Shown in pieces: positions 2,937 through 51,941 of a stretch of 64,000 nt of DNA. The stretch is from a virus. The position numbers and the translations under genes are program-made. Each line of letters begins with the position of its first letter. Position 1 is the stretch's first letter. Below the pieces are notes generated by a model. It was not told where the DNA came from. It saw only the letters and a program-made list of their open reading frames with translations, and ran no database searches. The stretch spans positions 32,001 through 96,000 of IMG/VR virus record IMGVR_UViG_3300028364_000018; one strand, 5' to 3'.

Positions 2937-3080
2937 ATGAATCAAGTAAAAAGAATGATGAGCTACCCCCGACGCATGTTCGAGCGCCTAACCCGGTTTT
3001 CGAACCACACAGGTCTGGCGCTGACAGAGATAGTCCGCCGGGCTGTTGATGAGTACCTGGATCGTAACGAAGTAAAATGA
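2937..3080 (+). CDS. ribbon-helix-helix (CopG-like) DNA-binding protein
   Basis: Hand-translated MNQVKRMMSYPRRMFERLTRFSNHTGLALTEIVRRAVDEYL (47 aa); ATGA overlap with tnpB. Confidence 0.7.
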   Translation: MNQVKRMMSYPRRMFERLTRFSNHTGLALTEIVRRAVDEYLDRNEVK

Positions 3081-4459
3081 AAGTCACACGCATCATAAAC
3101 GCCGAACCTAATCAGGCCTTGCTACCTATATGCAAGGCCACAGCGTTTATGCGTGCTGACATCTGGCGGCGTTACGGCGCACTAGGCACAGCCGGTAAAA
3201 GGTTGAACACCGTAAAACCCGAGCTGCCTGCGTTGTACAAGTACCTAGATCTGGACGGTACGATTCGGGCAGAGACTGCCAAAGACGTACTCAACGATAT
3301 ATACTCATACAAAGAGGCGGCCAAGGAGAGGGTGCGAAAGTCTGTTAGGAAGAGGGCCGAGACCGACGAGGAGTTGAAACGGTTGTACACCCTGCTTAAG
3401 AAAGATGAGTGGTTGGACGACAACTTCCTACACCGGCAGATGCGTAAGCACTTCAAGCACGGCGTAGCCCATTGCGCGAATCAATTTGTGGTTCGTAGTG
3501 ATAGGGTGCTGACCGAGGTAGTGGAAGGGCGCCTAGTTGTAATCCTAAAGATTGCACCAAAATACGGGAACTCTATAAGGCTGACTACCACAACAAGTGG
3601 TAAGAACGTAGACCTCAAGGGCTCGAACCTGCGAGTAATTGTGAAAGATACGGGGGTGGAGATCCACTACTGCGCAGACAAACAACCCGGACGAGCGCCA
3701 GGAGTGGGTAAGATTGGGGTGGATAAGGGTTACACTGAGGCGTTTGCCGATAGCCGGGGAGGTCTACACGGACAGGGTTTCGGGCAGACCATGACCAAGT
3801 TCAGCGACCGGGTTAAGGAGACGGGTAAGTCCCGTAACAAACTCCGCGCGTTGGAGGAGAAGCACCGGGAAGCCGGTAGGGTGGCTAAAGCAGACCGGAT
3901 TAATAAAAACAACTTAGGAAATAAGAAGATTGAGAGACGAAAAGAACGGACACAAAAGAGACTGCGGACAATCGCTTTCAAAGCGGCTCACGCAGTTGTT
4001 GACCATGCCTCCCATGTGGGAGCAGAAGATTTGAGTTCTCCGATATGCTCCAAGCATAAATGGAGGAATTACAATCGGAGAATGAGTTCCTGGGCCAAAG
4101 GCGTTTTAGCCGAGGCATTGGAAAACGTCACGCAACAGCGTGGCTCGAAGTTACAGCTTGTTGCTTCGGCCTACACATCGCAAATTGATTCACAGACGGG
4201 CTTGCTGGAAGGCCAGCGCGTCGGGGATCGGTTTTACCACGTAAGTGGGGATGTCAGTCAGGCCGACACCAACGCTGCACGAGTGATTGAGCGACGGATG
4301 GATGACCCGGAGATAGGGCGTTACACGCCCTTCAAAGACATCCGTCTGATACTACTCAATCGCTCTCCGGCGCAACTGAGCGTCAATAGGGTCGAGTTGG
4401 GATCTTTGGATCGTCAACCGACTGCGGATAAACTCAATGCGCACTTATACGCATACTAA
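3077..4459 (+). CDS. tnpB: TnpB-family RNA-guided RuvC endonuclease
   Basis: IGVDKG (RuvC I), AEDLS (RuvC II), AYTSQ and ADTNAA (RuvC III). Confidence 0.85.
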   Translation: MKVTRIINAEPNQALLPICKATAFMRADIWRRYGALGTAGKRLNTVKPELPALYKYLDLDGTIRAETAKDVLNDIYSYKEAAKERVRKSVRKRAETDEELKRLYTLLKKDEWLDDNFLHRQMRKHFKHGVAHCANQFVVRSDRVLTEVVEGRLVVILKIAPKYGNSIRLTTTTSGKNVDLKGSNLRVIVKDTGVEIHYCADKQPGRAPGVGKIGVDKGYTEAFADSRGGLHGQGFGQTMTKFSDRVKETGKSRNKLRALEEKHREAGRVAKADRINKNNLGNKKIERRKERTQKRLRTIAFKAAHAVVDHASHVGAEDLSSPICSKHKWRNYNRRMSSWAKGVLAEALENVTQQRGSKLQLVASAYTSQIDSQTGLLEGQRVGDRFYHVSGDVSQADTNAARVIERRMDDPEIGRYTPFKDIRLILLNRSPAQLSVNRVELGSLDRQPTADKLNAHLYAY

Positions 4460-15791: not shown

Positions 15792-16844
15792 CTATTGAAC
15801 CGAGTATAAAGCAGGAGGGCTATAAACTCCCCTGTTGCGAATGTTGATGGCTGCGTTTAAATCCGCATCCATACGATTATCACAAGCAGTACAAGCAAAG
15901 GCTTTCCCCTTACGGGAGGCCCGGTCTTGTACGCCGCACGCACTACAGGTCTGAGAAGTATAAGCCGGGTTGACCTTCGTAAAGGTCAACCCAGCTTCTT
16001 CACAAACAGATGCTAGCTTGCCCAAAACCTTTGGGTACGACCAGCGCTGTAGTTTGTTATTAAATTTCTTACTCATCTGCCCTCTGGATTTGTGCTTGAC
16101 CGACTTCAGGTCTTCAACCACAACCTCCCGTACCCCCGCCAAGTCCAACTTATTCACCACCCGGTTAATCAGGTTATCCCTCTCTGTCAGCGCCCGCTTG
16201 AAGGCCTGGGAGCCTTGTTTCTTACGTGCGATCTTTTCGTATTGAGCTTCAAGTTCCTGCCCATGCTCCACTCCTTCGGAGTCTGCGAGCAGCGTCTTGT
16301 AACCGCAATCATAACCAACGGACTTACCTTTCTTGACAGGAAGGGGCTCTACCTTCTCAGCATAAAGGTCCAAGTAATACCTATCCCCGGCCTTGCGTAG
16401 CCGGGAGCTCTGCTTGATTAAAAACCCTTTGTCCAGCAGGTCGAGCATATGACGATGCTTACGGCTAGGAAGATTTAGTATAATCTTAGATCCAAGACAG
16501 GAGAGTCTAAACCACACATCATATGAGTTTTGATCAAGTTTTATGTCTAAGAACCTAGCATCTAAGTTTATGGTCTTGCGTGTTAAGGTCGGTTTAGACT
16601 TCTTGCGCTTCTTACGTTGCGACTTAACGATCTCCAACGCTTGCTTACCCAGAGCCTGCTGTAATCGCGCGGATAACCATGTTGGGACTTTATAAGTAAC
16701 GAACTTGGAAGAAAAGTCCCGCTCATCCCACAACCTGTCAATAAACAGATTCACAACTTTAACCGACTCTTCCAGCACCCGGTCAAGCTCCAGTAGCTTT
16801 CCATGGTTGGAGTCTGCCAGATTAAATTGTATACGTCTAATCAT
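15792..16844 (-). CDS. tnpB: IS607 TnpB RNA-guided endonuclease
   Basis: GYDCG, VVEDL, AYTSQTCSAC, CTAC and DADLNAA; RuvC D-E-D triad intact. Confidence 0.9.
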   Translation of the reverse strand: MIRRIQFNLADSNHGKLLELDRVLEESVKVVNLFIDRLWDERDFSSKFVTYKVPTWLSARLQQALGKQALEIVKSQRKKRKKSKPTLTRKTINLDARFLDIKLDQNSYDVWFRLSCLGSKIILNLPSRKHRHMLDLLDKGFLIKQSSRLRKAGDRYYLDLYAEKVEPLPVKKGKSVGYDCGYKTLLADSEGVEHGQELEAQYEKIARKKQGSQAFKRALTERDNLINRVVNKLDLAGVREVVVEDLKSVKHKSRGQMSKKFNNKLQRWSYPKVLGKLASVCEEAGLTFTKVNPAYTSQTCSACGVQDRASRKGKAFACTACDNRMDADLNAAINIRNRGVYSPPALYSVQ

Positions 16845-17406
16845 TACTAAGCTCTTTTATTAATTTTTCCGTTTTTCGCTTAGTTCTTCTAAGTCCGTAA
16901 AGTCTGGCACAAAAAGAGGTGACTAAAGACACAAAGTCTTGCATCAGATCTTGCTTGTCGTCCTCTACCTTATTGACCACCACCAATTCTGCATTACGCT
17001 CATCCATCAATACTTCAAGATACTTAAACCCGAACCTTGTTAGCCTGTCTTTATGCTCTACAATGATGCGCGTGTAAGTCGGATCTTTTAATAACCGCAG
17101 TAACTTAGGTCTTGCATCATTTAACCCGGAGCCCACCTCTTTTACTACAGCATCAACACCCCAACCTCTCGCGTTAGCGTATGCGACGAGTCTGCTGGCC
17201 TGCCCTTCTAAGTTAGATTCGTTCTGCGAGGAGCTAACTCTAGTGTAAATAGCAGTTTTTTCCGGGCGTTGTGGTGCATCCTCCGGTATAAGAATCTTAC
17301 CTAGGTCATCCTTAAACGCGCCGGGTATTTTGCCAAGGTTAAACCTGTTCCACGCAGCTCGGTACTGTATACCGTGCTGTTTTGCATATTTACTTAGTGT
17401 CAACAT
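16837..17406 (-). CDS. tnpA: IS607 serine-recombinase transposase
   Basis: N-terminal HTH, IYTRVSS, EVGSGLN and HKDRLTRFGF. Confidence 0.92.
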   Translation of the reverse strand: MLTLSKYAKQHGIQYRAAWNRFNLGKIPGAFKDDLGKILIPEDAPQRPEKTAIYTRVSSSQNESNLEGQASRLVAYANARGWGVDAVVKEVGSGLNDARPKLLRLLKDPTYTRIIVEHKDRLTRFGFKYLEVLMDERNAELVVVNKVEDDKQDLMQDFVSLVTSFCARLYGLRRTKRKTEKLIKELSND

Positions 17407-18252: not shown

Positions 18253-19308
18253 ATGCCAGATAAAGCCCTATTCCAGATGTTAGCCGCCAAGAACGACAGT
18301 GACCAAGGTCAGTACAAAGCCAAGGCGGACAAGATGTTTAAGCTCCTGATGACACAACCGGATGAGTTTGAGGTGGAGGACGATCCCAAAGGTGGGCATC
18401 CTCTCCTCACCCATCGCCCCACCCACTTCAAGATGCACCTACCTAAGCGGTACATCCCGGCACGTGTATGGGACTCCCCGCACGAAGCGTTGGTTAGCAG
18501 GGAAGTGATAGATAAAGAAAAGGAGGCGAGCACTAAGGAGGACCGAGCGGTCCCTGCTTACGTAGCCAAGCAAGCTGGACTCCCCAGGAGTGTGAAGATG
18601 ATACCTTACATTCGGAATTACGCAGACGAGGGTATGCGGCAGATTCTATCACGACCCCGATGGCCAGCTACCCTACGGGAGCCACTACCATGGGGTAACT
18701 TTGCCGCATACGCGCCGGAAGGTACAAATGCTTACAACGTGATAGGCTCTGACATCCCCAAGGTACTACAAGGGATGGGTTACGGTCGGAAAATGTATGG
18801 AGCAGCAATACGTACAGCGTATGAGGACTACCTAAAAGGGGGTCCTCGGTGGTTTGGGTCAGATAGCAGTGGGCGGACCACTACTAAGGCTTGGCACCTG
18901 TGGGAGAGCCTACAGAGAAGAGGTTACCCGGCTAAACAGATGCCGATGGATTTCCCCAGAAAAGGTTACCACTCACGATGGGCCATCGACTTAGATGACA
19001 TGAAGAAATTTTACAAGGATGTTAAACCCAATGGTCCGGCTACGGGCAAGCCCGTGACACGCGTAGGTCCCCCGGTTAAGGAAGCAAGCGTCCCGTCCGA
19101 CAAACAACTGCTGTCCCAGACCGACCTGAACCCCAGTGAAGCTCAGCAGGAAGCCGGTAACTACCGGAAGGCCCATATCAAACTACATGGGTTGGACATC
19201 TCAATCGAGAATCCCCGGGGAAGTACCAGGAGCGGGGTTGGTCCAGATGGTAAAGAGTGGAGCCACAAGCTCGATCTACACTATGGATATATCAAGGGCT
19301 TCAGCTAA
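18253..19308 (+). CDS. polyvalent protein: unknown domain, GNAT-like domain and N-half of an InPase domain
   Basis: QGMGYGRKMY GNAT motif; PSEAQQEAGNYRKAHI...SIENPRGS...HYGYIKG. True start is probably 18253, because the track start overlaps tRNA-Thr. Confidence 0.7.
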   Translation: MPDKALFQMLAAKNDSDQGQYKAKADKMFKLLMTQPDEFEVEDDPKGGHPLLTHRPTHFKMHLPKRYIPARVWDSPHEALVSREVIDKEKEASTKEDRAVPAYVAKQAGLPRSVKMIPYIRNYADEGMRQILSRPRWPATLREPLPWGNFAAYAPEGTNAYNVIGSDIPKVLQGMGYGRKMYGAAIRTAYEDYLKGGPRWFGSDSSGRTTTKAWHLWESLQRRGYPAKQMPMDFPRKGYHSRWAIDLDDMKKFYKDVKPNGPATGKPVTRVGPPVKEASVPSDKQLLSQTDLNPSEAQQEAGNYRKAHIKLHGLDISIENPRGSTRSGVGPDGKEWSHKLDLHYGYIKGFS

Positions 19309-19338
19309 GCTCCAGCCTTCCTTTTTTTAGCTATGACC

Positions 19339-19367
19339 TTGACCAACGCCCCTTTAAATACTACCAT
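19339..19367 (+). promoter_or_regulatory. promoter for a leaderless transcript, between the two InPase halves
   Basis: TTGACC-N17-TACCAT, then 6 nt, then ATG at 19374. Confidence 0.65.
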
Positions 19368-19373
19368 CCGAGG

Positions 19374-22300
19374 ATGAATACCAAACTACAGGCCATAGAC
19401 GGAGACGCCCCAGATTGCTTTATAGGACCTAACCCTGAATCTACCAAGGTTTGGGTGGTAGACCAATGCAAACCCAATGGGAAGTTTGACGAGCCCAAGG
19501 TACTACTGGGGTTCGACACCCAGAAGGAAGCTACGGACGGATATCTCAGTGCTTACGATGAAGGCTGGAAGCTGGGGCCGGTCACTGCCTGCACCATAGA
19601 TGAGTTAAAGGGTTGGTTGGGGGATGGGTGTGTGCCCCATGAGTTTGCTGAGTATAAGAAGGGGGTGAAGTCGGAAGGAGAGAAGGAAGCGGCTAGTAAC
19701 TCAGTAGCCCTCATCAAGGGTAACCCTAAGCACATCAAAGACAATCCCAACGCTACGTCCTTCTATGAACAACTAGAAGGGTTACTACAAGAACAAGGCT
19801 ACGACGTAACTATGGATGACGGAGAACCCTTCACACAACCCGGAGAAGGGCACTCAGCATGGATCGGGCATAGTAGAGGTGGGGATAGGTTAAGGTTTGC
19901 GCCTGAGGGTGTAAGCACCCTAAGGTTAGACGACTACGAGCCAGAAGACTCACATGGGGAGGATGGTGTTCCTAATGACAACCACTATATGATAACAGAT
20001 GAGATGCGTGAAGCTATACTCGGGTTGTCTAAGAGTGGCGAGAAGAGTGCTAACGGCGGGCGAGCTGTGGGGTTGGATAATTTTGACGGCTCGACGCAGG
20101 ACCCAAACCTAGGCACACCCCAACCCAACCTTGCTCTCGGCATACGGGATTTGGCGAAGCAAGCTGGCCAGGCGCCGACCACAGGGACCCCCACTCCATG
20201 GGCGGGGCAAGAACAGATGCTCAAACACCTGTGGAACGCCGAGAACAACATACGCGACGGTTACAACCCGCAGTCCGGGACTTGGACAACCTACGATGAC
20301 AACGGCACGCCCGCTGTAGGACCCGGAGTACGTGTACCAGGTAAACAAGGCCAGACTTGGACGGATCAGCAGGTACAGGAGTTGGCGATTACCTCGATGC
20401 AAGAACACCTGGAACGGACCCGCAGGCGTTACCCACAGTTCGATACACTACCCATGCATTATCAGATGGGCTTGGTGGACGCCACCTACAACAGCGTGCG
20501 AACACCCCTGATGTACCAAGCGATGTTGGATGGGGATCATCGACGTGTGCTCGGAGAGAACTCAACACATTGGACGGATAAACATGGTGTTCGGCAACCG
20601 CATACCCGTCGGGATGGACTCAGACAGGAACTGATGGCACCTCCGGGCGGTGTACCAGCCCTTCCCACTCCACAACCCACGCCTACTCCAACCCCAGTGC
20701 CTACTCCCGCCCCAGCTGTTGCCCCAGCTGCAACCCCCGCACCCACAGGTCCCACGATGGCCCCAGGGCCGGGCGTACCTGCTCCTGCTGGGTACATGCC
20801 AACCACTGACAACCCCCCTACAAGCTACCATCAGGGTGCTGACGGTGCTGTGAGCTACATGGTACCCAAGAGCGGGGCTGTCGTGGAAAGGGCTGTGACC
20901 GGCCCCAGGGCGCTGGCTGAGGCCCTATCCGAGTTAGATCTGGATAAGCTGGAGGCCGAACAACGGGAGATCATCAAGAGCGGTAGTCGGAGTAAACGCT
21001 CTAAGGCTGTGCAGATCCTGGGCGCTATTGAAGGCCTCCGCCGTAATGAACTGACACCCAATCAGCTGATGATCAGCCGTGTGCCGGTCTTGCCCGCGCA
21101 ATTCAGACCTTTCAGCGCACAGGGCACGACCTTCATCCCCGGAGATGCTAATGTACTGTACAAAGACCTGTTTAACCTGAAGAAGGCCTATGCACAGGAG
21201 AGTCAGGTGTTTGGCGAGGACCAGGCAGGGGAAAGCCGGGGGTCGCTCTATGATGCGGTACGCGCTGTCTACGGTTACGGACCTCCGACCAACGATAAGG
21301 CGCGGGCCAAGGGTGTGAGCGGTTTCATGCAGAAGGTGCTGGGTGCTGGGTCCCCGAAACACAGTTTTTACCAACGAAACCTGATTAGCAAGACCCAGGA
21401 CAGCTCCGCACGCTCTGTGATTGGGGTGGACCCAGAGTTGGGCATGGATGAGATTGGTATACCCCAGGAGATGGGTTGGACTTTGTATGGGCCTTGGGTG
21501 CAGCGACGGCTCGTGCAGTCAGGGATGAATCCGGGCACGGCGTTGGAGAATGTCCGGGATCGGACGGACTATGCTGTGCGAGCTTTGGAGAAGGAGATGA
21601 GGGAGAGGCCGATTTTGGCGACGCGTAGTCCTGTATGGTGGAAATTCGGCGTGCTAGGCCTTACCCCGCACCTAGTAGATGGTGATGCGATTATGTCCAA
21701 CCCTTGGATTGAAACCGGCCTGGGCGCGGATCACGATGGTAATTGCGTCATAATCGGAACCAAGTTGATGGTGAAAGTACAGGATGTAAGGCTCGTGGCT
21801 GATAGGTCAGGAGATTGTGTCATAATCAGCGTTGACAAGGATAGGGAGACTGGTTATGATAGGCGTTACATGAGAATACCTAAAGGCGCCAAGGTTCTTT
21901 CCCAGCTCGGAACCGATACCATCATTGAGCTACCTATTGAAAACTTCCCACGCATGGGAGAGGCGCACACCGCTAAAGACGGAGGACTAACCTACGAAGT
22001 CCCGCCAGGAGTCCAGGTCCTGACCAACGCCCCGGACGGTCTGGGTGTGCGCTGGACACCGGTCACGACCTTCACGGTGGATGGAGTTAAACCCATACGC
22101 AGGCTTACCAGCAGCTCTAAGAAGGTGGTGGAGGTTAGCAACAATGAGTCAGTGGCAATCTACAACAAAGGTGGAACCATCGGAAGGACCAGCCCGGATG
22201 AACTCCGACCCTGGGATATGGTACCAACCATCCGTAACCTACCGGAGCCTGCTGAATCACGTTCATGTCCTTGGGCGTGGTTCTACGGAGCGTTCGTATC

Positions 22301-23600
22301 CGACGGCTGGGTTAGCGAGGGTAAGACAGTTGGTTACACCAAGGTAGATGCGGCTAAGCGTCGGCGTTTCCTGAAAGAGGCGGTGGAGTTCATCGGCATG
22401 GATGTGGACGTCAAACACTACTCTGAGACTCACGAGGCCCTGACCAACTCCGGCATTGGCGGTGAAAGCACTAAGATACATATCAACCTACGAGAGGATT
22501 CCCCGCAGGGTGTTCGGGACATGATCGAGGCCTTGGAGCGTTGTTACCACCCGAGTGTAAAGGATCGGGAGCCCGACCAACGCAGTTGCCTATTCAAACG
22601 ACTTCCTCCCGGTTATTTGGAATGGGACCAACCCAGTCGCATGGATTTGTTCTCCGGACTGCTGGATGGGGACGGTTGTATATCAATCAACAACTCCAGA
22701 GCCAAGCCCCAGGTGCTGGTTAACTTCAGTACCAGCTCCCCCTTCCTCAGGGACGACGTCTTCAAGCTATGTCTATCTCTGGGCATCCGGTGCTCCACCT
22801 CAGTGGGAGAGGCCAAGAAAGAGCGGGTACAGACACACGAGAGTTATGTGATGAACATCAGTACCCCGGACCTACTACCACTCGCGGGTCAACTGAACAT
22901 GGTGGAGAATAATAGGGGCCTGCAGATGCTACGAGCCTGCCCCAGCTTGAAGGATGACCGGGATACTCTACCTGTGGAGGAACCACTCCTGCACCAAGCC
23001 TGTGTACTCGGCGCGTTAGACCCCAAGGGCTCTAGTAACAGAGTGACTCTGATGGACTTGCGGTCTAAAGCTCGTCGTCAAGAGGGTTTGGTGGGAGTCA
23101 CCCGTAATCTTGCACGCAATCTCCTACAGGATTACCTGGGCGAGCGTGATGAGCGCTGGGAGGTGTTGGAACGCCTTGTTCAGGACACATCCCTTGGTTG
23201 GGAGACCATCAAGACCGTGGAGGACACGGGAGAGGCTGAGGTATTTGATATCGGAGTACCGGAGACCAAGGTCTATGCCTTGAGTAACGGCCTCATCATC
23301 TACGACACCTTCAACGTACATCTCCCAGCCTCTGCGAAGGGTGTGGAGGAGGCGCGGACCATCTTGAAGCCCAGTAGCATGCTGTTCCAAACCCGGGATC
23401 CCGGTAAAATTTTGCCGGTTCCCAAACATGAGCAAATTTCGGGAATTTCTTCAGCCATGCGACGCCCTGCCCGGAACTCCCACGTGTTTACCTCGGAGGA
23501 GGAGGCGATTAAGGCTATCAACAGTAAGCAGGTGAGCATGTCGGATGAAATAACGATTAGTGCCTTGCCAAACCCAACTCAAACCCCTACAATACTCTGA
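19374..23600 (+). CDS. polyvalent protein: InPase C-half, GxSxG hydrolase-like domain, lysozyme-like domain, Pro linker and RNA polymerase beta-prime catalytic segment with intein
   Basis: DGDAPDCFIGP...DEPKVLLGF; GHSRG; AENN...DNGTPAVGPG...LVDATYN; VPVLPAQFRP, SARSVI, RSPV and GADHDG...TFNVHLP. Confidence 0.85.
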   Translation: MNTKLQAIDGDAPDCFIGPNPESTKVWVVDQCKPNGKFDEPKVLLGFDTQKEATDGYLSAYDEGWKLGPVTACTIDELKGWLGDGCVPHEFAEYKKGVKSEGEKEAASNSVALIKGNPKHIKDNPNATSFYEQLEGLLQEQGYDVTMDDGEPFTQPGEGHSAWIGHSRGGDRLRFAPEGVSTLRLDDYEPEDSHGEDGVPNDNHYMITDEMREAILGLSKSGEKSANGGRAVGLDNFDGSTQDPNLGTPQPNLALGIRDLAKQAGQAPTTGTPTPWAGQEQMLKHLWNAENNIRDGYNPQSGTWTTYDDNGTPAVGPGVRVPGKQGQTWTDQQVQELAITSMQEHLERTRRRYPQFDTLPMHYQMGLVDATYNSVRTPLMYQAMLDGDHRRVLGENSTHWTDKHGVRQPHTRRDGLRQELMAPPGGVPALPTPQPTPTPTPVPTPAPAVAPAATPAPTGPTMAPGPGVPAPAGYMPTTDNPPTSYHQGADGAVSYMVPKSGAVVERAVTGPRALAEALSELDLDKLEAEQREIIKSGSRSKRSKAVQILGAIEGLRRNELTPNQLMISRVPVLPAQFRPFSAQGTTFIPGDANVLYKDLFNLKKAYAQESQVFGEDQAGESRGSLYDAVRAVYGYGPPTNDKARAKGVSGFMQKVLGAGSPKHSFYQRNLISKTQDSSARSVIGVDPELGMDEIGIPQEMGWTLYGPWVQRRLVQSGMNPGTALENVRDRTDYAVRALEKEMRERPILATRSPVWWKFGVLGLTPHLVDGDAIMSNPWIETGLGADHDGNCVIIGTKLMVKVQDVRLVADRSGDCVIISVDKDRETGYDRRYMRIPKGAKVLSQLGTDTIIELPIENFPRMGEAHTAKDGGLTYEVPPGVQVLTNAPDGLGVRWTPVTTFTVDGVKPIRRLTSSSKKVVEVSNNESVAIYNKGGTIGRTSPDELRPWDMVPTIRNLPEPAESRSCPWAWFYGAFVSDGWVSEGKTVGYTKVDAAKRRRFLKEAVEFIGMDVDVKHYSETHEALTNSGIGGESTKIHINLREDSPQGVRDMIEALERCYHPSVKDREPDQRSCLFKRLPPGYLEWDQPSRMDLFSGLLDGDGCISINNSRAKPQVLVNFSTSSPFLRDDVFKLCLSLGIRCSTSVGEAKKERVQTHESYVMNISTPDLLPLAGQLNMVENNRGLQMLRACPSLKDDRDTLPVEEPLLHQACVLGALDPKGSSNRVTLMDLRSKARRQEGLVGVTRNLARNLLQDYLGERDERWEVLERLVQDTSLGWETIKTVEDTGEAEVFDIGVPETKVYALSNGLIIYDTFNVHLPASAKGVEEARTILKPSSMLFQTRDPGKILPVPKHEQISGISSAMRRPARNSHVFTSEEEAIKAINSKQVSMSDEITISALPNPTQTPTIL
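21744..23306 (+). mobile_element. intein with LAGLIDADG homing endonuclease in the beta-prime active-site motif (521 aa)
   Basis: Starts CVIIG after ADHDGN; FYGAFVSDG and FSGLLDGDG; ends VFDIGV...NGLIIYD before Thr+1. Confidence 0.85.
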
Positions 23601-24791: not shown

Positions 24792-26009
24792 ATGGCTGAC
24801 AAAGACTTAAAATTCATTCAAGAAAATGTGGACGGACTGTTTGAAGAACGCACAGTAACGCCCGTATCCGGACAGGCGTTGATGTTTGACTCAGAGGGGT
24901 TTCCCGTGAGTGGAAATGCCGCTGAACCTTTCACCCTCCACGACGTAACCAACGCCCAACGCCTCGCAGGAACACGCAACGACGACACCACGCCTCTTGT
25001 CGCTGGTGACACGGTGCGGGTGACTGACCTGCCTGATGACCCGATCATGCTTATGCTGGGTACTGGTGATTGGACTACGATTTCAGAGCCGTTACAGATG
25101 CCATATTTCACGGCCCATACTTTTGTAACAACCGCAACGGATACGGTAGAAGCTTACAACGGAGATATCCCCGACGACTTTGCTTCAACAAATAGTTTAG
25201 GAAGCGCAAAAGCCCTTTCTTTAGGTAATTCAGTTACATCTATTGGCAGTGAGGCTTTTTATAATTGCTCAGGATTTACAGGATATTTAAATATTCCTGA
25301 TTCCGTTACATCTATTGGAAATAATGCTTTTAGGAGTTGCTCAGGATTTACCAGTTTAACAATTCCTGATTCAGTTACAACAATTGGAAATAATGCTTTT
25401 AGGAGTTGCTCAGGATTTACCAGTTTAACAATTCCTGATTCAGTTACATCTATTGGAAGTTATGCTTTTGCTGGTTGCTTAGGATTAACAGGAAGTTTAA
25501 CAATTCCTGATTCCGTTACATCTATTGGAAATAATGTTTTTGCGTATTGCACAGGCTTCACAGGAAGTTTAACAATTGCTGATTCAGTTACAAGTATTGG
25601 AAGTTATGCTTTTTATACTTGCACAGGATTTACAGGAGATTTAAATATTCCAGATTCAGTTACATCTATTGGAAGTAGTGCTTTTTGGGGTTGCACAGGA
25701 TTTACAGGAGATTTAAATATTCCTGATTCAGTTACATCTATTGGAGGTCAGGCTTTTCAGGGTTGCTCAGGCTTCACAAGTTTAACAATTCCTGATTCAG
25801 TTACATCTATTGGAGGTGGTGTTTTTAGGGATTGCACAAACCTTACAAACGTAAATTGCTATGTAACCAAAACTATATTTAATCAAAGTAATGTTTTAGC
25901 AGGAACAGGAGTTACAACCTTACACGCCCTTGCAAGTGATGGAACATGGACAGCAGGTGCCGACACAATTGGTGGAAAAGCATTAACAGTAATTAAGGAT
26001 TTGGTGTAA
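24792..26009 (+). CDS. BspA-type leucine-rich-repeat (LRR_5) protein with a fiber-like N-terminus
   Basis: About 9 LTIPDSVTSIGxxAFxxC repeats. Confidence 0.9.
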   Translation: MADKDLKFIQENVDGLFEERTVTPVSGQALMFDSEGFPVSGNAAEPFTLHDVTNAQRLAGTRNDDTTPLVAGDTVRVTDLPDDPIMLMLGTGDWTTISEPLQMPYFTAHTFVTTATDTVEAYNGDIPDDFASTNSLGSAKALSLGNSVTSIGSEAFYNCSGFTGYLNIPDSVTSIGNNAFRSCSGFTSLTIPDSVTTIGNNAFRSCSGFTSLTIPDSVTSIGSYAFAGCLGLTGSLTIPDSVTSIGNNVFAYCTGFTGSLTIADSVTSIGSYAFYTCTGFTGDLNIPDSVTSIGSSAFWGCTGFTGDLNIPDSVTSIGGQAFQGCSGFTSLTIPDSVTSIGGGVFRDCTNLTNVNCYVTKTIFNQSNVLAGTGVTTLHALASDGTWTAGADTIGGKALTVIKDLV

Positions 26010-26010
26010 T

Positions 26011-26808
26011 ATGAAAACTGTTCATTATACATCGGGACTTCCGAGAGCTTGCTCCAGCCTCCTCCAAAACCTCCTTGCCCAGAATCCTCAAGTCCATGCC
26101 ACGGCCACAAGCGGTGTGCATGAGATAGGGTATATCGCCCGTGGGTTCTTTGACACGGAAGAGTTCAAGACTTTCAAGAACCCACTTGACGGAGAACAGC
26201 AATACTATGACTTCCTCCGTGGCGGTATTCAATCCGCTTTCGACTCCCGTACAGACAGACCGATTGTGGTTGATAAGTGTCGTTCGTGGGTGGGGCACCT
26301 AGACCAACTCTTCAAAGTCTTTCCCGATGCAAAGGTGCTTGTTCCTGTTCGTGATGTCCGTGGAATCCTGACTTCCCTTGAGAAGAAACGAGCGCAACAC
26401 CCTTCACGATTTACGGGAGTGGAAAAAGCTAACCCGCAAAACTGGACGACCGTTGAAAAGCGGGCACAAGGTTGGCTTTCGATCCCACCCCTTTCAATCG
26501 CTCTTGAGCGCATTCATGATGCGGTGCGTACCCATAAAGGCAGGCTTCACTTTGTACACGCTGAAGACCTGACAAACGATCCACAAGAAACGATGAACAA
26601 GGTCTGGTCGTATCTGGGGATGGATCCATTTGTACACAACACCAATAACGTGGAACAATACACCACCGAACATGAGCTTGGATTCCCCTATGGGGACCAT
26701 AAAATAAGACCCAAGATCGAACCGCTTAAAAAAGAGTGGAACGAGGTATTGGGCAGAGATTTATCAAGCGCAATCGCAACAAAATTCCAATGGATAAACG
26801 AATTATGA
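26011..26808 (+). CDS. sulfotransferase-family protein
   Basis: SGLPRACSSLL, VDKCRSW, VRDVRGILTS and VHAEDL. Confidence 0.85.
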   Translation: MKTVHYTSGLPRACSSLLQNLLAQNPQVHATATSGVHEIGYIARGFFDTEEFKTFKNPLDGEQQYYDFLRGGIQSAFDSRTDRPIVVDKCRSWVGHLDQLFKVFPDAKVLVPVRDVRGILTSLEKKRAQHPSRFTGVEKANPQNWTTVEKRAQGWLSIPPLSIALERIHDAVRTHKGRLHFVHAEDLTNDPQETMNKVWSYLGMDPFVHNTNNVEQYTTEHELGFPYGDHKIRPKIEPLKKEWNEVLGRDLSSAIATKFQWINEL

Positions 26809-27372: not shown

Positions 27373-27762
27373 ATGACAAAATTACTACTAACGATTTGCA
27401 TCCTGACTTTTACAGGGTGCTCAACTCCTACCCCGTCTGACTCCAAACCTGTACCGGAAAACTACATGGGGCATCCTACGCTCACGCGTGGGCTTTTCCG
27501 AGAGCTACATGGCTCCTACTTTAACGAGACCGCTGAAAGTCGTATGGTGGTGCGGGTTGAGATGGGCACTGAGTATCAATACGAGTACTCCTCACGCCTC
27601 TACGAAAATAAGCTTACCTATGAGTTCCGCGTTTGGATCGGTAATACGCAAACGGATTTTGATCGAGCGGTAAGCGACATCATGGCGACGATTAAAACCC
27701 TGCCAGAAGAGGATTGGGGTAAGCTTGATGTCGGTCTAAATTATGATCGGGGTCAGCTATGA
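27373..27762 (+). CDS. lipoprotein, paralog of 34715
   Basis: Signal peptide with FTGC lipobox; C-terminal PEEDWG.LD..L.YDR shared with 34715. Confidence 0.75.
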   Translation: MTKLLLTICILTFTGCSTPTPSDSKPVPENYMGHPTLTRGLFRELHGSYFNETAESRMVVRVEMGTEYQYEYSSRLYENKLTYEFRVWIGNTQTDFDRAVSDIMATIKTLPEEDWGKLDVGLNYDRGQL

Positions 27763-28736
27763 CGTTTCGGGTCGATGATCATGGGGCATCTACCCCGCCT
27801 GATGTAATTCGGGTTTTGGTTAATGATACCTGGGGCGGAGAATTGCACCCCGCGCAAGCCAAGCTGTTTCCTTGGGCAGATGTCCGTCGATTGGACTACA
27901 AAGCTCTACGCAATCCGCACGGTCACATGGTTCTTGTAGAGTTTCTGCTTGCTTTAAAACGTGCACACATCGAAAAATACGGGATACTTCCAAACCGCGT
28001 AGAGGTTGATATGTTTCCGTTTTTAGAGATGCAACGCAAGTATCCAGATAGCTGGTTTACAAATATTGCAAAGAAAAAGTATCATGCCGTAATCAATTCT
28101 TGGGGGGATGCCTCTCGCTCCATTTTAGACATGGCCTTTGCCAAATCTAAATTTGCTCAATCCGATAAGCGTAAACGCATTGAGGATGCTGTAGGTGACA
28201 CGCTCCTTTTTTGGGCTTCGGGAAATTCGGATGTTTCGGAGCGTGGAAAGCCTGATGTCCAGTTAAATCTAAATTATACGCAATACCTTTTACGGAGATT
28301 TATCGAGTCCTCAATCATTGTGGGCAGCTGCGATCAGGTTGGATTGCCGTCAACTTTTTCGTCCGATGGCTGGGTGGATGTCGCGTACCGCGGCGAAAAT
28401 ATCTTGTTGTACAATCCGATCAACCGCAAATACCAAAAGGGTCAGGGCACAAGCTTTTCAAATCCTGCGGCCTCCGGTGACTGTGTAGGCCGTGGCCTGT
28501 TTACTGCTGAGGGCGTAAGAGCCTATTTCAAGGCTCGAGCAACCTCTCATCCATCTTGGGATGGGGACAAGTTGCATCCTAAATTTGGTGAGGGTGTGAT
28601 CGTTTTTGATGGTGAGAAGCAAGTCACGAGTGATGTGCTGGCGATGCCGCTATCGTGGCACGATAATAAAAAACTGACCGTGTTTAACCACCGCCGATTT
28701 ATTAGCGGTTTGAAACTTCGTCGGGTGAGTCGATGA
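27759..28736 (+). CDS. subtilisin-like (S8) serine protease lacking a pro-domain
   Basis: VNDT (Asp), PHGH (His), ASGNS (oxyanion Asn) and GTSFSNP (Ser). Confidence 0.8.
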   Translation: MTFRVDDHGASTPPDVIRVLVNDTWGGELHPAQAKLFPWADVRRLDYKALRNPHGHMVLVEFLLALKRAHIEKYGILPNRVEVDMFPFLEMQRKYPDSWFTNIAKKKYHAVINSWGDASRSILDMAFAKSKFAQSDKRKRIEDAVGDTLLFWASGNSDVSERGKPDVQLNLNYTQYLLRRFIESSIIVGSCDQVGLPSTFSSDGWVDVAYRGENILLYNPINRKYQKGQGTSFSNPAASGDCVGRGLFTAEGVRAYFKARATSHPSWDGDKLHPKFGEGVIVFDGEKQVTSDVLAMPLSWHDNKKLTVFNHRRFISGLKLRRVSR

Positions 28737-37900: not shown

Positions 37901-40144
37901 GTGAAAGCCGTACAACTACTCATTGAATCCCGGCTTCCTCCAGAACTGCGCGATTATAACCGGGAGTACACAGCTAAGTCCATAGGGAATCTCCTATCGG
38001 ACTTGGCAGTTTCGTACCCAGATAAGTACGACGAGGTGAGCAGGCTTATCGGTGACACTGGGCGTAACAGTAGTTACTGGCAGGGTGACACCATCAAACT
38101 GTCTGACCTGAAGCCCGTATTCGACAAAGAACCGTTGTTGGAGCAGATGAAGGCGGAGATCGCGGGCTTACCACGGGATGACCCGAAGTTCGAGGACCAG
38201 CGCCAGGCTGTATGGATCCGGTACAACGAGGAGATGCAGAGGCTCACCAACGAGGCAGGAGCCACGTCCGATAACAGCATCGCACGAGCTGTATTGAGCG
38301 GTGCGCGTGGTAAACCCGACCAGATGAAGATGATGCTGACCGCCCCCGGACTCTACTCCAACAGTAAGGGTGTAGTTCCGTTATTCATCAGTCATAGCTT
38401 TGGAGAGGGCCTGCGCCCCGCTGAATACCTGGCTAGTACCTACGGAGCACGTGATAGTATTGTGAAGATCAAGACCGCTACGGCGAAAGGTGGCGATTTT
38501 GGGAAGCAAATTGCGCAAACTGCTGCTACTACGATAGTTACGACGAAAGACTGCGGTACAGACAACGGGTTGGACTTGGATTTGGCAGACCCCTCGCTGA
38601 GAGGCCGGGTGCTGGCTAAGGCCGTGGGTGGGCTGGGAGTCGGAACTGTTTTAGATCGAAGTGCCTTACAACAGTTGGAGAAGGAGAAGGTCACGACCGT
38701 TATAGCGAGGTCGGCCATGACCTGTAATGCCGGTACTGGTGTGTGCCAGCAGTGCATCGGTAAGTTTCACGATCAACGCTTTCCTAAGATAGGGGAGGCA
38801 GTGGGGGTAACAGCGGCTAACGCATTAAGCGAGCCCGTCACTCAAGGCAGCCTTGGATGTCTAACGGACGATACACTGGTTCGTATGACAGACTTCACTA
38901 CCAAAAGAATCGACCAGATCAAGGTCGGGGACATGGTGTTAGGCTCGGATGTAAAGGCCAGGACCTTCCCGGTCAAGGTCCTACATGTGTGGGATAAAGG
39001 ACTCCAACCGGTCAAGCGTCGGGTTTTCACCCAGCCGGAGCTATCAGTGGACTGTACTGACGACCATATCATGCTCTTGTCGGATGCACAGGGTGTTCTC
39101 AGCAAACAACCAGCTGGAACCCCGGGAGAGGTGTTGGCCCCCATAGTCGGGCTTCCACACCCTCTACCCAGAACAGCTGTGGAAGACCTAGGCCTTCTTC
39201 ACTGCATGGACATCAGCGTCGATCACCCGGATGAGCTGTTTGTCCTAGCCAACGGTTTGATAGTTAAGAACAGCAAACATTCGGGAGGCCAGACAACAGG
39301 TAAAAAAGAGTATTCGGGCTTCAACGTCATCAACCAACTTGTGCAATCCCCAGAGGAGTTCCCAGACAGAGCCCTAGTCTCGGAAGAGAGCGGTACAGTC
39401 AGCTCCGTAGAAGAAGCACCCCAAGGTGGGTTCATCGTGACTGTTGGAGAATCCCAGCATTACGTACCCCAGGGGTATCCGGTGATGGTTAAGTCCGGCG
39501 ACCGGGTTGAGGCGGGTGATCAGCTCAGCGAGGGCCTGATAGACGCGGGTGACATCGTACGCCTTCGTGGTCTAGGTAGCGGACGGCGTTACTTTGCGGA
39601 TCGCCTACACCGTGTACTGGAAGACAGTGGATTCGGAGGGGATAAACGTAATGTGGAGATCGTAAGTCGGTCTGTCATTGATCATGCTCGTGTCGAGGAT
39701 GACCAGAACCTACCCGGGACACTCCCTGACGATCAGATCAGCTACAACCGCCTTAGCCAGACCTACACCCCACCAGCGTCCTCCAAACGTCTTCCAACAG
39801 CAGATACAGTCGGCCAATACCTACAGAGCCCGGCTCTGCACTACTCGATTGGAACCCGGCTAAGCCCCTCCCAAGTAAAACGCCTCCAAACATCGGGCTA
39901 TACCCATCTTGAGGTATCTCCGGAAGAGCCGGGGTTCCGTACGGAGATGCAGAGACTTCGGACATCCACACAGACCAACCCCGACTGGTTGGCCCGGCAA
40001 GGCGCTTCGTACCTCAAGAGTAATTTACTGGAAGGGGCGGTCCGAGGACAGGACACCAATATACAATCTAACATTCATTTTGGACCGAGGCTTGCATTTG
40101 GTAAGGATTTCGGTAAGAATACGGCAACTACAGGAGAATTTTAA
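37901..40144 (+). CDS. RNA polymerase beta-prime subunit, C-terminal part (funnel, bridge helix, trigger loop) with mini-intein
   Basis: SGARG, SFGEGL..AEY..STYGAR, DCGT, RSAMTC...CQQCIG and GEAVG..AA..LSEP.TQ...KHSGG. Confidence 0.9.
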   Translation: MKAVQLLIESRLPPELRDYNREYTAKSIGNLLSDLAVSYPDKYDEVSRLIGDTGRNSSYWQGDTIKLSDLKPVFDKEPLLEQMKAEIAGLPRDDPKFEDQRQAVWIRYNEEMQRLTNEAGATSDNSIARAVLSGARGKPDQMKMMLTAPGLYSNSKGVVPLFISHSFGEGLRPAEYLASTYGARDSIVKIKTATAKGGDFGKQIAQTAATTIVTTKDCGTDNGLDLDLADPSLRGRVLAKAVGGLGVGTVLDRSALQQLEKEKVTTVIARSAMTCNAGTGVCQQCIGKFHDQRFPKIGEAVGVTAANALSEPVTQGSLGCLTDDTLVRMTDFTTKRIDQIKVGDMVLGSDVKARTFPVKVLHVWDKGLQPVKRRVFTQPELSVDCTDDHIMLLSDAQGVLSKQPAGTPGEVLAPIVGLPHPLPRTAVEDLGLLHCMDISVDHPDELFVLANGLIVKNSKHSGGQTTGKKEYSGFNVINQLVQSPEEFPDRALVSEESGTVSSVEEAPQGGFIVTVGESQHYVPQGYPVMVKSGDRVEAGDQLSEGLIDAGDIVRLRGLGSGRRYFADRLHRVLEDSGFGGDKRNVEIVSRSVIDHARVEDDQNLPGTLPDDQISYNRLSQTYTPPASSKRLPTADTVGQYLQSPALHYSIGTRLSPSQVKRLQTSGYTHLEVSPEEPGFRTEMQRLRTSTQTNPDWLARQGASYLKSNLLEGAVRGQDTNIQSNIHFGPRLAFGKDFGKNTATTGEF
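38858..39271 (+). mobile_element. mini-intein (138 aa, no homing endonuclease)
   Basis: CLTDDTLV...IDQIKVGD...CTDDH...CMDISV...ANGLIVKN, then Ser+1. Confidence 0.9.
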
Positions 40145-42711: not shown

Positions 42712-44835
42712 ATGAAAGACTTATTCAACAAACTATGGAAGAAACAGGCTTCGGCCCAATTCAGCGACAACGACATCGAACGAGCATTTATGGACCAAGC
42801 CTACGGCTTCATCCAGAATAAGGCGGGTAAGCTCCTGAGCGACCCCCATCGCCTGGGCTTCGAAATCGTCTACAAGAATGACAACAGCACCCGCATGGTC
42901 GGTATCTTCGCCTTCCGGGCAGAGAAGCGTTTGTTGTACGCCCCTAGCTTCTTCATCAACGGTGAAATCAAAGGTACGGACCTCCTGTACCAGCATGACC
43001 GCAAACTCTTTACACCCCTGACGGAGGAATGGGCCAACTACCTCCTGAAGGCACAGAACATGAATCAAGGAAGTGGTTACCAAGGCGACGCCCCCCGGAC
43101 GCGCTCTGCCGACCTCTATAAGCTGGTCAGTCCCAGCCAAAGTAATAACTTTAGTAAGTACGCCTCCTACGAGTCAGCACCTGCCACCATCGAGCCCCCT
43201 ATTTCCGAGGTGCTGGACGAGATGTTTAAGCGGGCGGAGCTTCAACCAATTCTCCAACGCTTTATACTGGAGGATGGAGGTAGGCATGCGGTGGAGTCCA
43301 TCGAACGCGCGGTTCACACCAATATGAAGTTCGCACGAGCTTTATCAGAGGTAGATCCCTCTCAATACCTTCCGGAACTCCCGGTTGAGAAGAAGGCGAG
43401 TACCGCACCCGTCCTAACGCTAGTCCGGGGACTGCAACAGGGGGTTAAGTCCGCTTTTGACCAAGCCCGAGTTCTTAAGTACGGCTTTACCCTGCTGGAC
43501 GACCGCCATGACCTGAACACAGTTGAGGTCGATGACCTTCAGCTGGAGAGTGTCGCGGAATCCGGGGTGTATAAGGTGTTGATGGCAGACGGCTCCAGGC
43601 AGGAAATGGTGTGCGTGGTGGACGACAAAGGAGGTTGTGGTTCCGACGAAATGCGGACGACAGCCAACACCAAATGTGTGGACTCCAAAGGTCGGATGTC
43701 TGTAAGACGGGGCGACCCTGTTTACGGCGAGCAACTGATGGACCAAAACCTAGAGAAATACAAGAAGGCACCTACCGCTGGTAAAACCTACCTGTTCTTT
43801 GATGCGCAGAACCCCAGCCGGGGACAACTCTTCAAGGTCAAGAGCATTTCAAAACGCGGAGACATCCAGACTCTGGAACTCGAAACCGAGTACGGGTCTG
43901 AAAGGACCATGACGGTCAACCCCGACCTCAAGGGAGACCTTAAGGACAGTGGTGATGAGCTTCTGGCGGGCGCCGGATATATGTGGATCCCGGTCAAGAC
44001 CAAGTCCACCGACTACGGCTTTGATGTGGAGGATGGAGAGGCGTTGGGTACTGACCAGTCGCTAAATCGTATGGTGGAGAAATCCGGGTCGATCCGGCTC
44101 AAGCTCTCAAACCATCCAGACAACGGCTGGAGCTTGAAGATGCTTGACAAAGTCGTGGGCAAGGACCTGGATGTAACGAGCATGGCGGTTAAGCTGGCTC
44201 GGGATCTACACATAGGCGCAGATCATGTATTTGGCTTGCTGGAGACGGCTCAGCCTTCGGTGGACTTCTGGATGAACGTCGACGGGCTGCGTAAAAGCGG
44301 GTCGATGCAGGTCATGGAAGAACCAGACTTTGAAGACGACTACGACAGCCAGTTCGGTGTGCCGGTTAACTACGGGCATGCACAATCTCTGGAGGTCAGC
44401 ACCCCATTCGAGGAGCTTCCACAACAGCGCGTTGGCGATACGGAGGATCCAAACGATGGAGGAGGTGCGCCGCACGAGATGCTGATGAACGCATCTCCAG
44501 AGGAATTAGCGCAGTACGCCGAGATGAATCAGCTCCCCAACCTCTTCGAGCATGGGATAGTCGGTTCGATGGTCAAGTCCTTCGACTCCCCAGCCATGCT
44601 CGACCGGTATATGCCTGATCTGGAGAAGGCGCTGGATAGTATGGGACGCTCTCTCTTCCTCCTGTTCTGGAAGCCCGGCGAGTTCGACGACGCTTGGGGT
44701 CCTGAAGAGCGTCAGAGCACCGAAGACGAGATGCTGGCCAACTTCAAGAGCTTCGGGGACATGGTTCTCCATCTCCTACATAAATCTAAATCTAATCGAG
44801 GTGTGGTTGGTATCTCCAGTAACGCCACCGCATAA
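42712..44835 (+). CDS. large putative head-associated protein
   Basis: 707 aa; KKQAS near the N-terminus and several K-x-A motifs; in the head gene block. Confidence 0.55.
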   Translation: MKDLFNKLWKKQASAQFSDNDIERAFMDQAYGFIQNKAGKLLSDPHRLGFEIVYKNDNSTRMVGIFAFRAEKRLLYAPSFFINGEIKGTDLLYQHDRKLFTPLTEEWANYLLKAQNMNQGSGYQGDAPRTRSADLYKLVSPSQSNNFSKYASYESAPATIEPPISEVLDEMFKRAELQPILQRFILEDGGRHAVESIERAVHTNMKFARALSEVDPSQYLPELPVEKKASTAPVLTLVRGLQQGVKSAFDQARVLKYGFTLLDDRHDLNTVEVDDLQLESVAESGVYKVLMADGSRQEMVCVVDDKGGCGSDEMRTTANTKCVDSKGRMSVRRGDPVYGEQLMDQNLEKYKKAPTAGKTYLFFDAQNPSRGQLFKVKSISKRGDIQTLELETEYGSERTMTVNPDLKGDLKDSGDELLAGAGYMWIPVKTKSTDYGFDVEDGEALGTDQSLNRMVEKSGSIRLKLSNHPDNGWSLKMLDKVVGKDLDVTSMAVKLARDLHIGADHVFGLLETAQPSVDFWMNVDGLRKSGSMQVMEEPDFEDDYDSQFGVPVNYGHAQSLEVSTPFEELPQQRVGDTEDPNDGGGAPHEMLMNASPEELAQYAEMNQLPNLFEHGIVGSMVKSFDSPAMLDRYMPDLEKALDSMGRSLFLLFWKPGEFDDAWGPEERQSTEDEMLANFKSFGDMVLHLLHKSKSNRGVVGISSNATA

Positions 44836-49098: not shown

Positions 49099-49460
49099 TG
49101 GATATCCGGCGCACTATCACTCTTATTGACAACGCTTACCACGCTCAGGTGGGCGTAGAGAGCCTGTCTGTGGTGGATCAGGATGCTGTAGCTCGGTTCG
49201 GGCAATGGCCCATTGACCTGGGCGGTGCCTTTGATGACGGGGAGGGTCTAGAGTTTGAGCTACCTCTGCAGGTTAGGTACTTCCCAACGCAACGCGTAGC
49301 CAAATCTATTTTTTACATATCAGATGCCCTAGCCGCCGATCGCACACTGTTGTGGGTTGACACCATAGTGCAACGTTTGGTAGAGGCACAGGCCGCTGCC
49401 CTCGGGAAGGACCCGAGAAACATATTGGATACCATAACAACTTACCCAGAGATCGTATAA
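49098..49460 (+). CDS. hypothetical protein
   Basis: 120 aa, coupled at both ends. Confidence 0.6.
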   Translation: MDIRRTITLIDNAYHAQVGVESLSVVDQDAVARFGQWPIDLGGAFDDGEGLEFELPLQVRYFPTQRVAKSIFYISDALAADRTLLWVDTIVQRLVEAQAAALGKDPRNILDTITTYPEIV

Positions 49461-50362: not shown

Positions 50363-50364
50363 TC

Positions 50365-51864: not shown

Positions 51865-51883
51865 AAAAAGTCGTCATTAAGGG

Positions 51884-51912
51884 TTGACCTTCAACCCTGT
51901 TTATAGCAGAAT
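51884..51912 (+). promoter_or_regulatory. promoter for the scaffold/capsid genes
   Basis: TTGACC-N17-CAGAAT; AAGGA SD before 51942. Confidence 0.5.
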
Positions 51913-51941
51913 ACCAACATAACCTAATCAAGGAACTATAT

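Follow-up and report, generated by a model that had tools for sequence, protein, structure and literature searches.

A locus in a 64,000-nucleotide stretch of viral DNA (positions 32,001 to 96,000 of IMG/VR record IMGVR_UViG_3300028364_000018, here called the window) encodes, judged by sequence, the N-terminal segment of the β′ subunit, with clamp and catalytic loop, of the only multisubunit RNA polymerase (RNAP) detected in the contig. The window belongs to a viral contig of 122,487 bp that originates from lake-water metagenomes and is estimated to be 63% complete, and the phage is an uncultivated lake virus with a genome of about 200 kb. The locus consists of two open reading frames (ORFs), ORF1 (18253–19308, 351 amino acids) and ORF2 (19374–23600, 1408 amino acids), both on the plus strand, as are all features of the locus given below. 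The two ORFs jointly correspond to single proteins in relatives and comprise, in this order, a conserved N-module, a GNAT-like region, an InPase domain, a small domain with the motif GHSRG, a predicted GH24 (T4-lysozyme-type) fold, a Pro-rich linker, and the β′ N-segment, which is interrupted by an intein. As the best explanation of this arrangement, the polymerase is probably carried in the virion and injected with the DNA. An initial annotation of the window gave the coordinates of both ORFs correctly. Its domain order also holds, but the accessory domains are embedded between the N-module and the polymerase core and are not simply placed in front of it.

The β′ core and its partner subunits

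The β′ parts are residues 485–790 and 1312–1408 of ORF2. The first part (N-extein, 20826–21743) ends in ADHDGN, and the second (C-extein, 23307–23600), which begins with TFNVHLP and comprises 97 amino acids and the stop codon, has 154 homologs. The core matches PF00623 (E 1.7e-07), and the match to PF04997 is weak and below threshold (E 0.041, 13.7 bits against a cut-off of 39.7 bits). Phmmer finds 872 homologous clusters of the core at E ≤ 1e-30, and hhalign of minimal relatives against the bacterial β′ P0035 gives a probability of 100 and an E-value of 6e-42 over approximately residues 253–625. The Pfam Rpb1 domains, the homologous clusters and the hhalign result all agree with the β′ clamp and active-site region proposed by the initial annotation. 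The β′ N-segment thus stands as the active-site region, but the 521-residue intein inside it had gone unseen and the loop encodes DHDGN, not DxDGD. In place of the catalytic NADFDGD triad, the gene encodes ADHDGN followed by the intein, and the third Asp is Asn.

The partner subunits are also present in the contig. The C-terminal part of β lies at contig positions 25181–27085, and the C-segment of β′ (PF04998) lies at window positions 37901–40144 on the plus strand. The latter carries a mini-intein of 138 residues (38858–39271, Hint) in the trigger loop with the canonical set of residues, C...TDDH...KN/S (Cys1 and Lys-Asn/Ser; here and below a slash marks a splice junction).

Sequence similarity of the locus to cultured phages is at most 31%, and a megablast search against 50,697 phage records gave no match. 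Likewise, a search for related loci with a single protein returned no relatives, but alignments as the query did find them.

Accessory domains between the N-module and the core

The N-module of about 90 residues (ORF1 residues 1–88, 18253–18516) was found by phmmer in 23 homologs, mostly at the extreme N-terminus. In minimal forms of the protein (477, or about 480, residues) it stands directly before the core, and the accessory domains are therefore embedded between the two. The N-module does not align with bacterial β′. It is followed by linker 1 (18517–18582), which contains EKEAS and AKQAG, and by the putative GNAT-like region (ORF1 residues 111–270, 18583–19062). The evidence for GNAT consists of an Atlas feature score of 0.91 to viral GNAT clusters, with 164–168 shared features, which is below the guide value of 170, and of a Q-x-x-G-x-G motif (QGMGYG). 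No Pfam match was obtained even at E 10, and no homolog occurs in the set of relatives, so that the GNAT domain named in the initial annotation is kept as a weak lead.

Linker 2 (19063–19098) contains VKEAS and leads to the InPase domain, which agrees with the initial annotation. PF18823 matches both ORFs, with profile positions 1–54 in the N-terminal half (19099–19299, E 2.7e-20) and positions 56–134 in the C-terminal half (19389–19673, E 1.6e-21). The full length of the profile is therefore covered, but across two ORFs that are parted by 89 nt.

The small alpha/beta domain of about 115 residues (ORF2 residues 109–225, 19698–20048) has 13 homologs, and its motif GHSRG (Ser167) is invariant in 14 sequences. 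In the structural model (pLDDT 86.5), the motif lies between a strand (residues 58–61) and a helix (residues 64–71), which is the placement of a G-x-S-x-G nucleophile elbow. His100 of the domain is invariant, and the consensus has an Asp between Ser63 and His100. By VIA-align, the minimal hydrolase 2qjw reaches a Z-score of 8.2, a tie with receiver and sugar-binding folds of the flavodoxin-like kind. Foldseek returns only generic three-layer alpha/beta matches with TM ≤ 0.45, and nothing in the fold search rises above background. The designation as hydrolase-like, proposed earlier from the G-x-S-x-G pattern, is reasonable from the motif and its placement in the model but not established, as the fold search ties hydrolases with flavodoxin-like folds.

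Linker 4 (ORF2 residues 226–272, 20049–20189) contains AKQAG, and the Lys of a further site, EKSAN, lies slightly upstream (residue 224, 20043–20045). The next domain (ORF2 residues 273–420, 20190–20633) is predicted to adopt the T4-lysozyme (GH24) fold. The AlphaFold2 model, built from four sequences, has a pLDDT of 77.7, and its top Foldseek matches are overwhelmingly GH24 endolysins (7m5i, 8hp8, 1xjt, 8app, 6h9d, and the lysozymes of T4 and P22) with TM 0.54–0.62 and probabilities up to 1.00, at E-values of only 4e-3 or weaker. A language-model search also indicates PF00959. All four aligned sequences share Glu290, the Glu of helix 1, and have Ala or Val where the Glu-Asp-Thr triad has Thr. 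Pfam gave no PF00959 match even at E 10, the PDB gave no sequence match, and a profile search found no stand-alone relatives at E ≤ 0.01. The structure check of this domain thus favors the lysozyme-like domain seen in the initial annotation, with enzymatic activity as a prediction. More generally, the four unassigned domains gave no Pfam match at E 10, and PDB sequence searches with three unassigned regions gave chance-level matches only. Directly after the lysozyme domain comes the Pro-rich linker recognized earlier (20634–20825, 36% Pro), which lacks a K-x-A site. With an InPase, a lysozyme fold and two further domains, the locus has the several unrelated effector domains in one polypeptide, InPase among them, by which polyvalent proteins are defined; InPase and GNAT are typical domains of such proteins (Iyer et al. 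2017, PMC5512222).

Recurrence of the fusion among relatives

The fused architecture is not peculiar to this contig. Hundreds of protein clusters from uncultivated phages of approximately 180–235 kb carry variable cassettes at this place, and among 150 clusters listed the core starts anywhere from residue 1 to about residue 1470, in proteins of 270–2230 amino acids. The cassettes of 40 long relatives include InPase (12), NUDIX (9), the C-terminal part of β (7) and HAD_PNKP (5), and more rarely GNAT (3), LysM (2) and 2H phosphoesterase (2), besides MazG, LigD phosphoesterase and AAA_18. Forms with a glucosaminidase and with LysM also exist among the relatives. The fusion with peptidoglycan-directed domains and polyvalent-type enzymes is thus recurrent, which answers the check in relatives that the initial annotation had proposed. 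An assembly chimera, which that annotation had named as a possible refutation, is practically negligible as an explanation: no evidence in its support was found, ORF2 occurs on seven contigs of independent assemblies, the junction between the ORFs is identical in three of them, and many relatives share the fused architecture.

Five complete relatives (205–235 kb) each have one locus for the β′ N-segment and one for the β C-part. Cassettes also occur on other pieces of the RNAP, as in a relative (L012, 2499–7003) in which an 863-residue GNAT-containing protein lies ahead of the β C-part. In three complete genomes (G002, G004 and G005), the β C-part and the β′ N-segment form one open frame of 1481–1958 amino acids. 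The literature searched contains no description of a β′ segment with an embedded lysozyme or polyvalent cassette, nor of the single-RNAP organization of this clade, although such absence is not proof.

Probable carriage in the virion

Virion carriage is plausible because of the fusions to wall hydrolases, the single RNAP set per complete genome, and the presence of RNAP in virions of the Salmonella phage Arash. By analogy with such phages, it is held here with moderate confidence. The virion preparation of Arash contains the RNAP proteins gp206 and gp216, both among its most abundant proteins (PMC10585845). No cultured relative nearer than Arash was found; identity over the core is 29% (E 2e-28). 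The RNAP of Arash belongs to the same lineage, and its gene adjoins the portal gene. In contrast to the locus in the window, gp206 has 1525 amino acids, is annotated as a β subunit and shows the β′ N-segment match at its C-terminal end, and the Arash paper reports no intein or cleavage motif (PMC10585845).

Other systems of virion-delivered polymerases resemble the locus in part. In SPN3US and phiKZ, the virion RNAP, a multisubunit enzyme, is carried in the head, and a prohead protease cuts head and ejection proteins at a short motif that recurs in propeptides (PMC5694885). As in the present phage, β and β′ of the phiKZ-like phages are split into several genes, and the head-packed enzyme is ejected. 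They differ in having two RNAP sets, as opposed to one in the complete relatives of this clade, in the cleavage motif, which is A/S/G-x-E there and the candidate K-x-A-[SAGN] here, and in the lack of a lysozyme or InPase embedded in a polymerase subunit. The N4-type virion RNAP is a polyvalent protein that shares one polypeptide with lysozyme/transglycosylase, peptidase, ART or RNase modules (Iyer et al. 2017, PMC5512222). That enzyme is a single-subunit T7-like RNAP, whereas the modules here lie inside a segment of a multisubunit β′. The tape-measure-fused virion RNAP of P23-45 (PMC10770324) and gp66 of crAss-like phages place a cellular-type RNAP within a large delivered virion protein, but their polymerase lineages and fusion partners differ from those of this locus.

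In the proposed mechanism, the RNAP would be assembled, packed into the head and ejected along with the DNA. The tethered lysozyme would aid passage through the wall, and host nucleotides or proteins would be targets of the small enzymes early in infection. A head-maturation protease would cut the linkers at their K-x-A-[SAGN] sites, a motif shared with motif-rich proteins near the likely capsid gene. Such cuts would free the N-module and the small enzymes and leave lysozyme, tether and β′ as one piece. The intein would have to exit the catalytic loop before the enzyme works.

The contig contains 32 copies of the motif K[EQS]A[SGAN], about 5-fold more than the 6.8 expected from per-protein shuffles. 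ORF1 and ORF2 together hold six sites, against 0.08 and 0.15 expected. In line with the initial annotation, which had seen the motif in most inter-domain linkers, all six are in such linkers. Two follow the N-module, one is found on either side of InPase, one behind the small domain and one ahead of the lysozyme. InPase itself contains a seventh, less strict site (QKEAT). The four nearest relatives that have this architecture retain the site ahead of InPase, and K-x-A-[SA] at this linker is found in P0007, P0009 and P0042. The earlier notion of an injected kit cut at these sites fits their position in the linkers, but it has to be amended, as lysozyme and β′ would stay joined in the absence of a K-x-A site between them. 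The enrichment fits the motif of a maturation protease by analogy with SPN3US and phiKZ. Cleavage at the sites is a tentative proposal, and we place it somewhat short of even confidence.

Plain K-x-A is most frequent in three ORFs (47743–49098, 50365–51864 and 51942–52994) directly upstream of a weak HK97-type Phage_capsid match (54154–55134). Proteins without a family match that carry 8–13 K-x-A each, against 2–4 expected, are encoded at window positions 47743–52994 and 42712–44835 and at contig positions 5783–7027 and 117085–118203. They may be scaffold, internal-head or ejection proteins. In PHROG and Pfam scans, almost all of about 40 neighboring ORFs stayed unassigned, and the head proteins of the initial annotation could not be named.

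Several observations weigh against packaging and cleavage. The motif-rich proteins have no family assignment, and calling them head proteins is therefore a guess based on where they lie. Neither of the prohead protease families S78 and S77 was found in the 63%-complete contig, in which the only protease recognized is an S8 subtilase (Peptidase_S8, E 3e-11, window 27759–28736). K-x-A enrichment is absent from the partial loci of relatives, pieces that lack structural genes. From the polymerase locus it is approximately 19 kb downstream to the nearest motif-rich ORF (42712) and approximately 30 kb downstream to the likely capsid gene (54154). For Arash, 116 proteins were found in the virion preparation, and its authors note possible carry-over of abundant enzymes (PMC10585845). 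The InPase, NUDIX, HAD and MazG domains could equally serve transcription in the cell, and parts of the gene may not work, given the loop DHDGN and the broken InPase. For this phage, packaging is a plausible reading and cleavage a tentative one.

These observations bear on an alternative in which the RNAP is not packaged and the embedded enzymes act in cis with intracellular transcription, for example by removal of pyrophosphate, by cleansing of NTP pools or by processing of RNA ends, while K-x-A-[SAGN] simply reflects the composition that flexible or helical segments tend to have in this phage. Most accessory families of the clade are directed to nucleotides or RNA ends (InPase, NUDIX, HAD_PNKP, MazG, 2H phosphoesterase, LigD phosphoesterase and the kinase-like AAA_18), which is in line with such a role, as are the distance of the gene from the structural block and the lack of a recognized protease for the motif. 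However, the GH24 lysozyme here and the LysM and glucosaminidase domains of relatives have no obvious use in the cytoplasm, the Arash RNAP subunits are abundant in virions, and the motif excess of about 5-fold was obtained against composition-matched shuffles. An exclusively intracellular polymerase is thus considered unlikely, and virion carriage remains the preferred reading.

The intein at the catalytic loop

The intein (ORF2 residues 791–1311, 21744–23306) spans 521 residues from Cys791 to Tyr-Asp1311 and consists of a HINT domain and a LAGLIDADG endonuclease (PF14528, E 2.8e-06; PF05204; PF14890) with two LAGLIDADG-type motifs, FVSDGW and LLDGDG. Its junctions, ADHDGN/CVIIG (21729–21746) and LIIYD/TFNVHLP (23298–23315), show that it directly follows the third catalytic residue and directly precedes Thr, at a point where intein-free relatives read DFDGD-T.NVHVP. 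Identical contigs from other lake samples bridge both junctions. The presence of Cys1 (Cys791), Thr1312 at position +1, a conserved insertion site and intein-free alleles is characteristic of class 1 inteins. In contrast, the block B T-x-x-H, the penultimate His and the terminal Asn of that class are replaced by S-x-N-E-S, Tyr and Asp.

This combination, here called class A, is shared. In each of the 17 class-A clusters (≤50% identity) the N-junction reads Asn-Cys, and in all of the 16 that are complete the intein terminates in [Tyr/Trp/Phe]-Asp, with Thr following. A conserved S-x-N-E-S takes the place of the block B His. The carriers include P0013, P0014, P0048, P0053 and P0067, and the pattern occurs in 12 further viral contigs (L095–L106). 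In the 100 intein-free proteins among the 182 family members, the third position is Asp without exception, and position –1 is also Asp with at least four other types of intein found at this site. Thus, the HINT and LAGLIDADG domains at an invariant catalytic site, Cys1, Thr at +1 and the intein-free alleles are common to class A and known inteins, whereas the catalytic Asp position at –1, which is always Asn, the replaced block B His and the penultimate Tyr, Trp or Phe set class A apart.

The DGD/T site is an intein hot spot with at least five types of insert (for example in P0051, P0087, P0101, P0104 and P0107; L016, L021 and L029). Besides class A, these include a large class that ends in LSN/T, often with a non-nucleophilic start, and the types SGRF...QD/T, CKSL...HQ/T and SVDL...HN/T. 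No intein hot spot in the DFDGD loop is described in the literature searched, and this absence is not proof. In other relatives (P0093, P0102, P0119, P0174–P0176, P0183 and P0184; L030, L032 and L033), the gene ends 13–15 residues past DFDGD, for example with DFDGDCQWGHVFVCLRDS before the stop codon, which by its sequence resembles either the very short N-fragment of a split intein or a gene divided at the catalytic loop. The nearest relative, P0004 (L005, 4270–8457; 65% core identity), reads LDFNGD, with Asn for the second catalytic Asp, and has a different intein class.

According to established intein chemistry, the expected spliced product is DHDGN-T. A carboxylate is generally held necessary for Mg binding in multisubunit RNAPs, as known from mutants of E. 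coli β′ Asp460, Asp462 and Asp464. The spliced DHDGN-T would lack such a carboxylate. Inteins that end in Asp are known to splice, and Amitai et al. in 2004 reportedly described inteins with a terminal Asp or Gln. A simple swap of the canonical Asp and Asn between position –1 and the intein end was considered, and this idea is weakened by another intein class at the same site that has Asp at both places. Speculatively, and with low confidence, class A might be a distinct HINT element in which the third catalytic Asp is encoded as Asn and the carboxylate is made only by the intein reaction. A possible route would lead from an Asn-thioester at Cys791 through a succinimide to a residue with a free β-carboxylate. 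The alternative, a multisubunit RNAP that functions with D-x-D-G-N, is equally unexpected.

A further explanation is that the gene is decaying and that the broken InPase, the Asn in the catalytic triad and the intein without the usual catalytic His and Asn mark a non-functional relic. The stop codon and frame change inside InPase, the loop DHDGN instead of DxDGD, block B as S-x-N-E-S, the intein end Y-D, and DFNGD in the nearest relative P0004 would all be expected of such a relic. On the other hand, ORF2 is open for 1408 codons, the two-motif LAGLIDADG region is intact, both InPase halves score like intact ones, and the same sequence occurs in several lake samples. The pattern N/C ... [YWF]D/T in 17 of 17 clusters and 12 further viral contigs also speaks against erosion. 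No β′ N-segment other than the class-A-interrupted gene was found in two complete genomes with terminal repeats, so that it is not a decaying copy there. Decay is very improbable on this evidence.

The break within the InPase domain

The two tandem ORFs of the initial annotation are better described as one gene cut inside the InPase domain. The first part of the PF18823 match ends at Gly349 of ORF1 and the second starts at Gln6 of ORF2. At the junction, HYGYIKG is followed by 89 nt (19300–19388) that contain the ORF1 stop codon TAA (19306–19308), a frame change and the ORF2 ATG (19374), and then by QAIDGD. The relative P0009 (1332 amino acids) has the equivalents of ORF1 and ORF2 in one protein with an unbroken InPase and reads HYGYIRGSEACDGD at this place, and ORF1 and ORF2 are therefore taken as one ancestral gene that was broken within a domain. 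The identity of the junction DNA in three independent assemblies and the recurrence of ORF2 on the seven contigs mean that the break is real and no assembly error. No second copy of the 89-nt insert, as expected of a mobile repeat, is present in the contig, and no variant without the insert or without the intein was found in DNA contigs of four lake samples, in which coverage is patchy.

In the absence of recoding, ORF1 and ORF2 would be two proteins, and the N-module would be parted from the core unless the InPase halves re-associate. Alternatively, the two ORFs might be joined in translation into one polyprotein, either by a frameshift or by a ribosomal hop from AGC-TAA (19303–19308) to AGC (19329–19331). 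This concerns expression only and is compatible with every other reading given here. For a hop, the take-off and landing codons are identical, the stop directly follows the take-off codon, and the frame after landing is that of ORF2. In addition, TTCAGCTAAG and TTTAGCTATG lie 26 nt apart around the ORF1 stop (19303–19334), and since AGCU is self-complementary, the two copies can pair in a 7-bp stem. This pair may be a bypass signal or a chance occurrence. The conservation of both InPase halves and the start context of ORF2 would also suit a joined product; the ATG of ORF2 has GAGG at spacing 0, whereas the modal spacing of the genome is 7 and none of 84 genes has spacing 0. However, ORF1 also has AGG directly before its ATG, so that spacing 0 may be a tolerated start context. 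The junction RNA folds no better than shuffles (z = –0.03), a slippery heptamer is absent, a matching codon within usable distance is not rare by chance, and the product would keep approximately 20 extra residues within InPase. The arrangement has no counterpart in relatives. The bypass in gene 60 of T4 likewise has matched take-off and landing codons, a stop right after the take-off codon, and the take-off codon within a stem. It differs in the gap of 50 nt, against 26 nt here, and the present junction has a fold at chance level and no relatives with the arrangement. Joined translation is accordingly regarded as improbable.

Neighboring genes

Genes for tRNA-Pro and tRNA-Thr lie directly upstream of ORF1, and no connection was found between them and codon use in the Pro/Thr linker. 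Directly upstream of the tRNA genes is an IS607-like pair of a serine recombinase and a TnpB/Cas12f-like protein (15792–17406, minus strand), and a second TnpB-like ORF lies at 3077–4459 (plus strand). Downstream of the polymerase gene come three short ORFs and then, approximately 1.2 kb away, the gene for a BspA-type leucine-rich-repeat protein together with a sulfotransferase-like ORF (24792–26808).

Significance

Virion-delivered RNAPs of three kinds are known, namely the N4 type, the phiKZ type, and the crAss and P23-45 types, and this locus adds another solution. Here, wall-degrading and nucleotide-directed enzymes form an exchangeable cassette, for which a subunit of a cellular-type multisubunit RNAP is the chassis, in a large and almost wholly uncultivated clade of phages of approximately 200 kb with a single RNAP set. 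The Asn in place of the catalytic Asp in class-A carriers, also where the interrupted gene is the sole copy, raises a sharply defined question, which concerns either the chemistry of inteins or the RNAP metal site. If the carboxylate is indeed made by the intein reaction, RNAP activity would be licensed post-translationally by intein chemistry, which would be useful for an enzyme that has to stay silent until assembly or ejection. If the polymerase is packaged, the clade would offer many natural combinations of polymerase and effector for the study of the ejection of big proteins and of the first seconds of infection.

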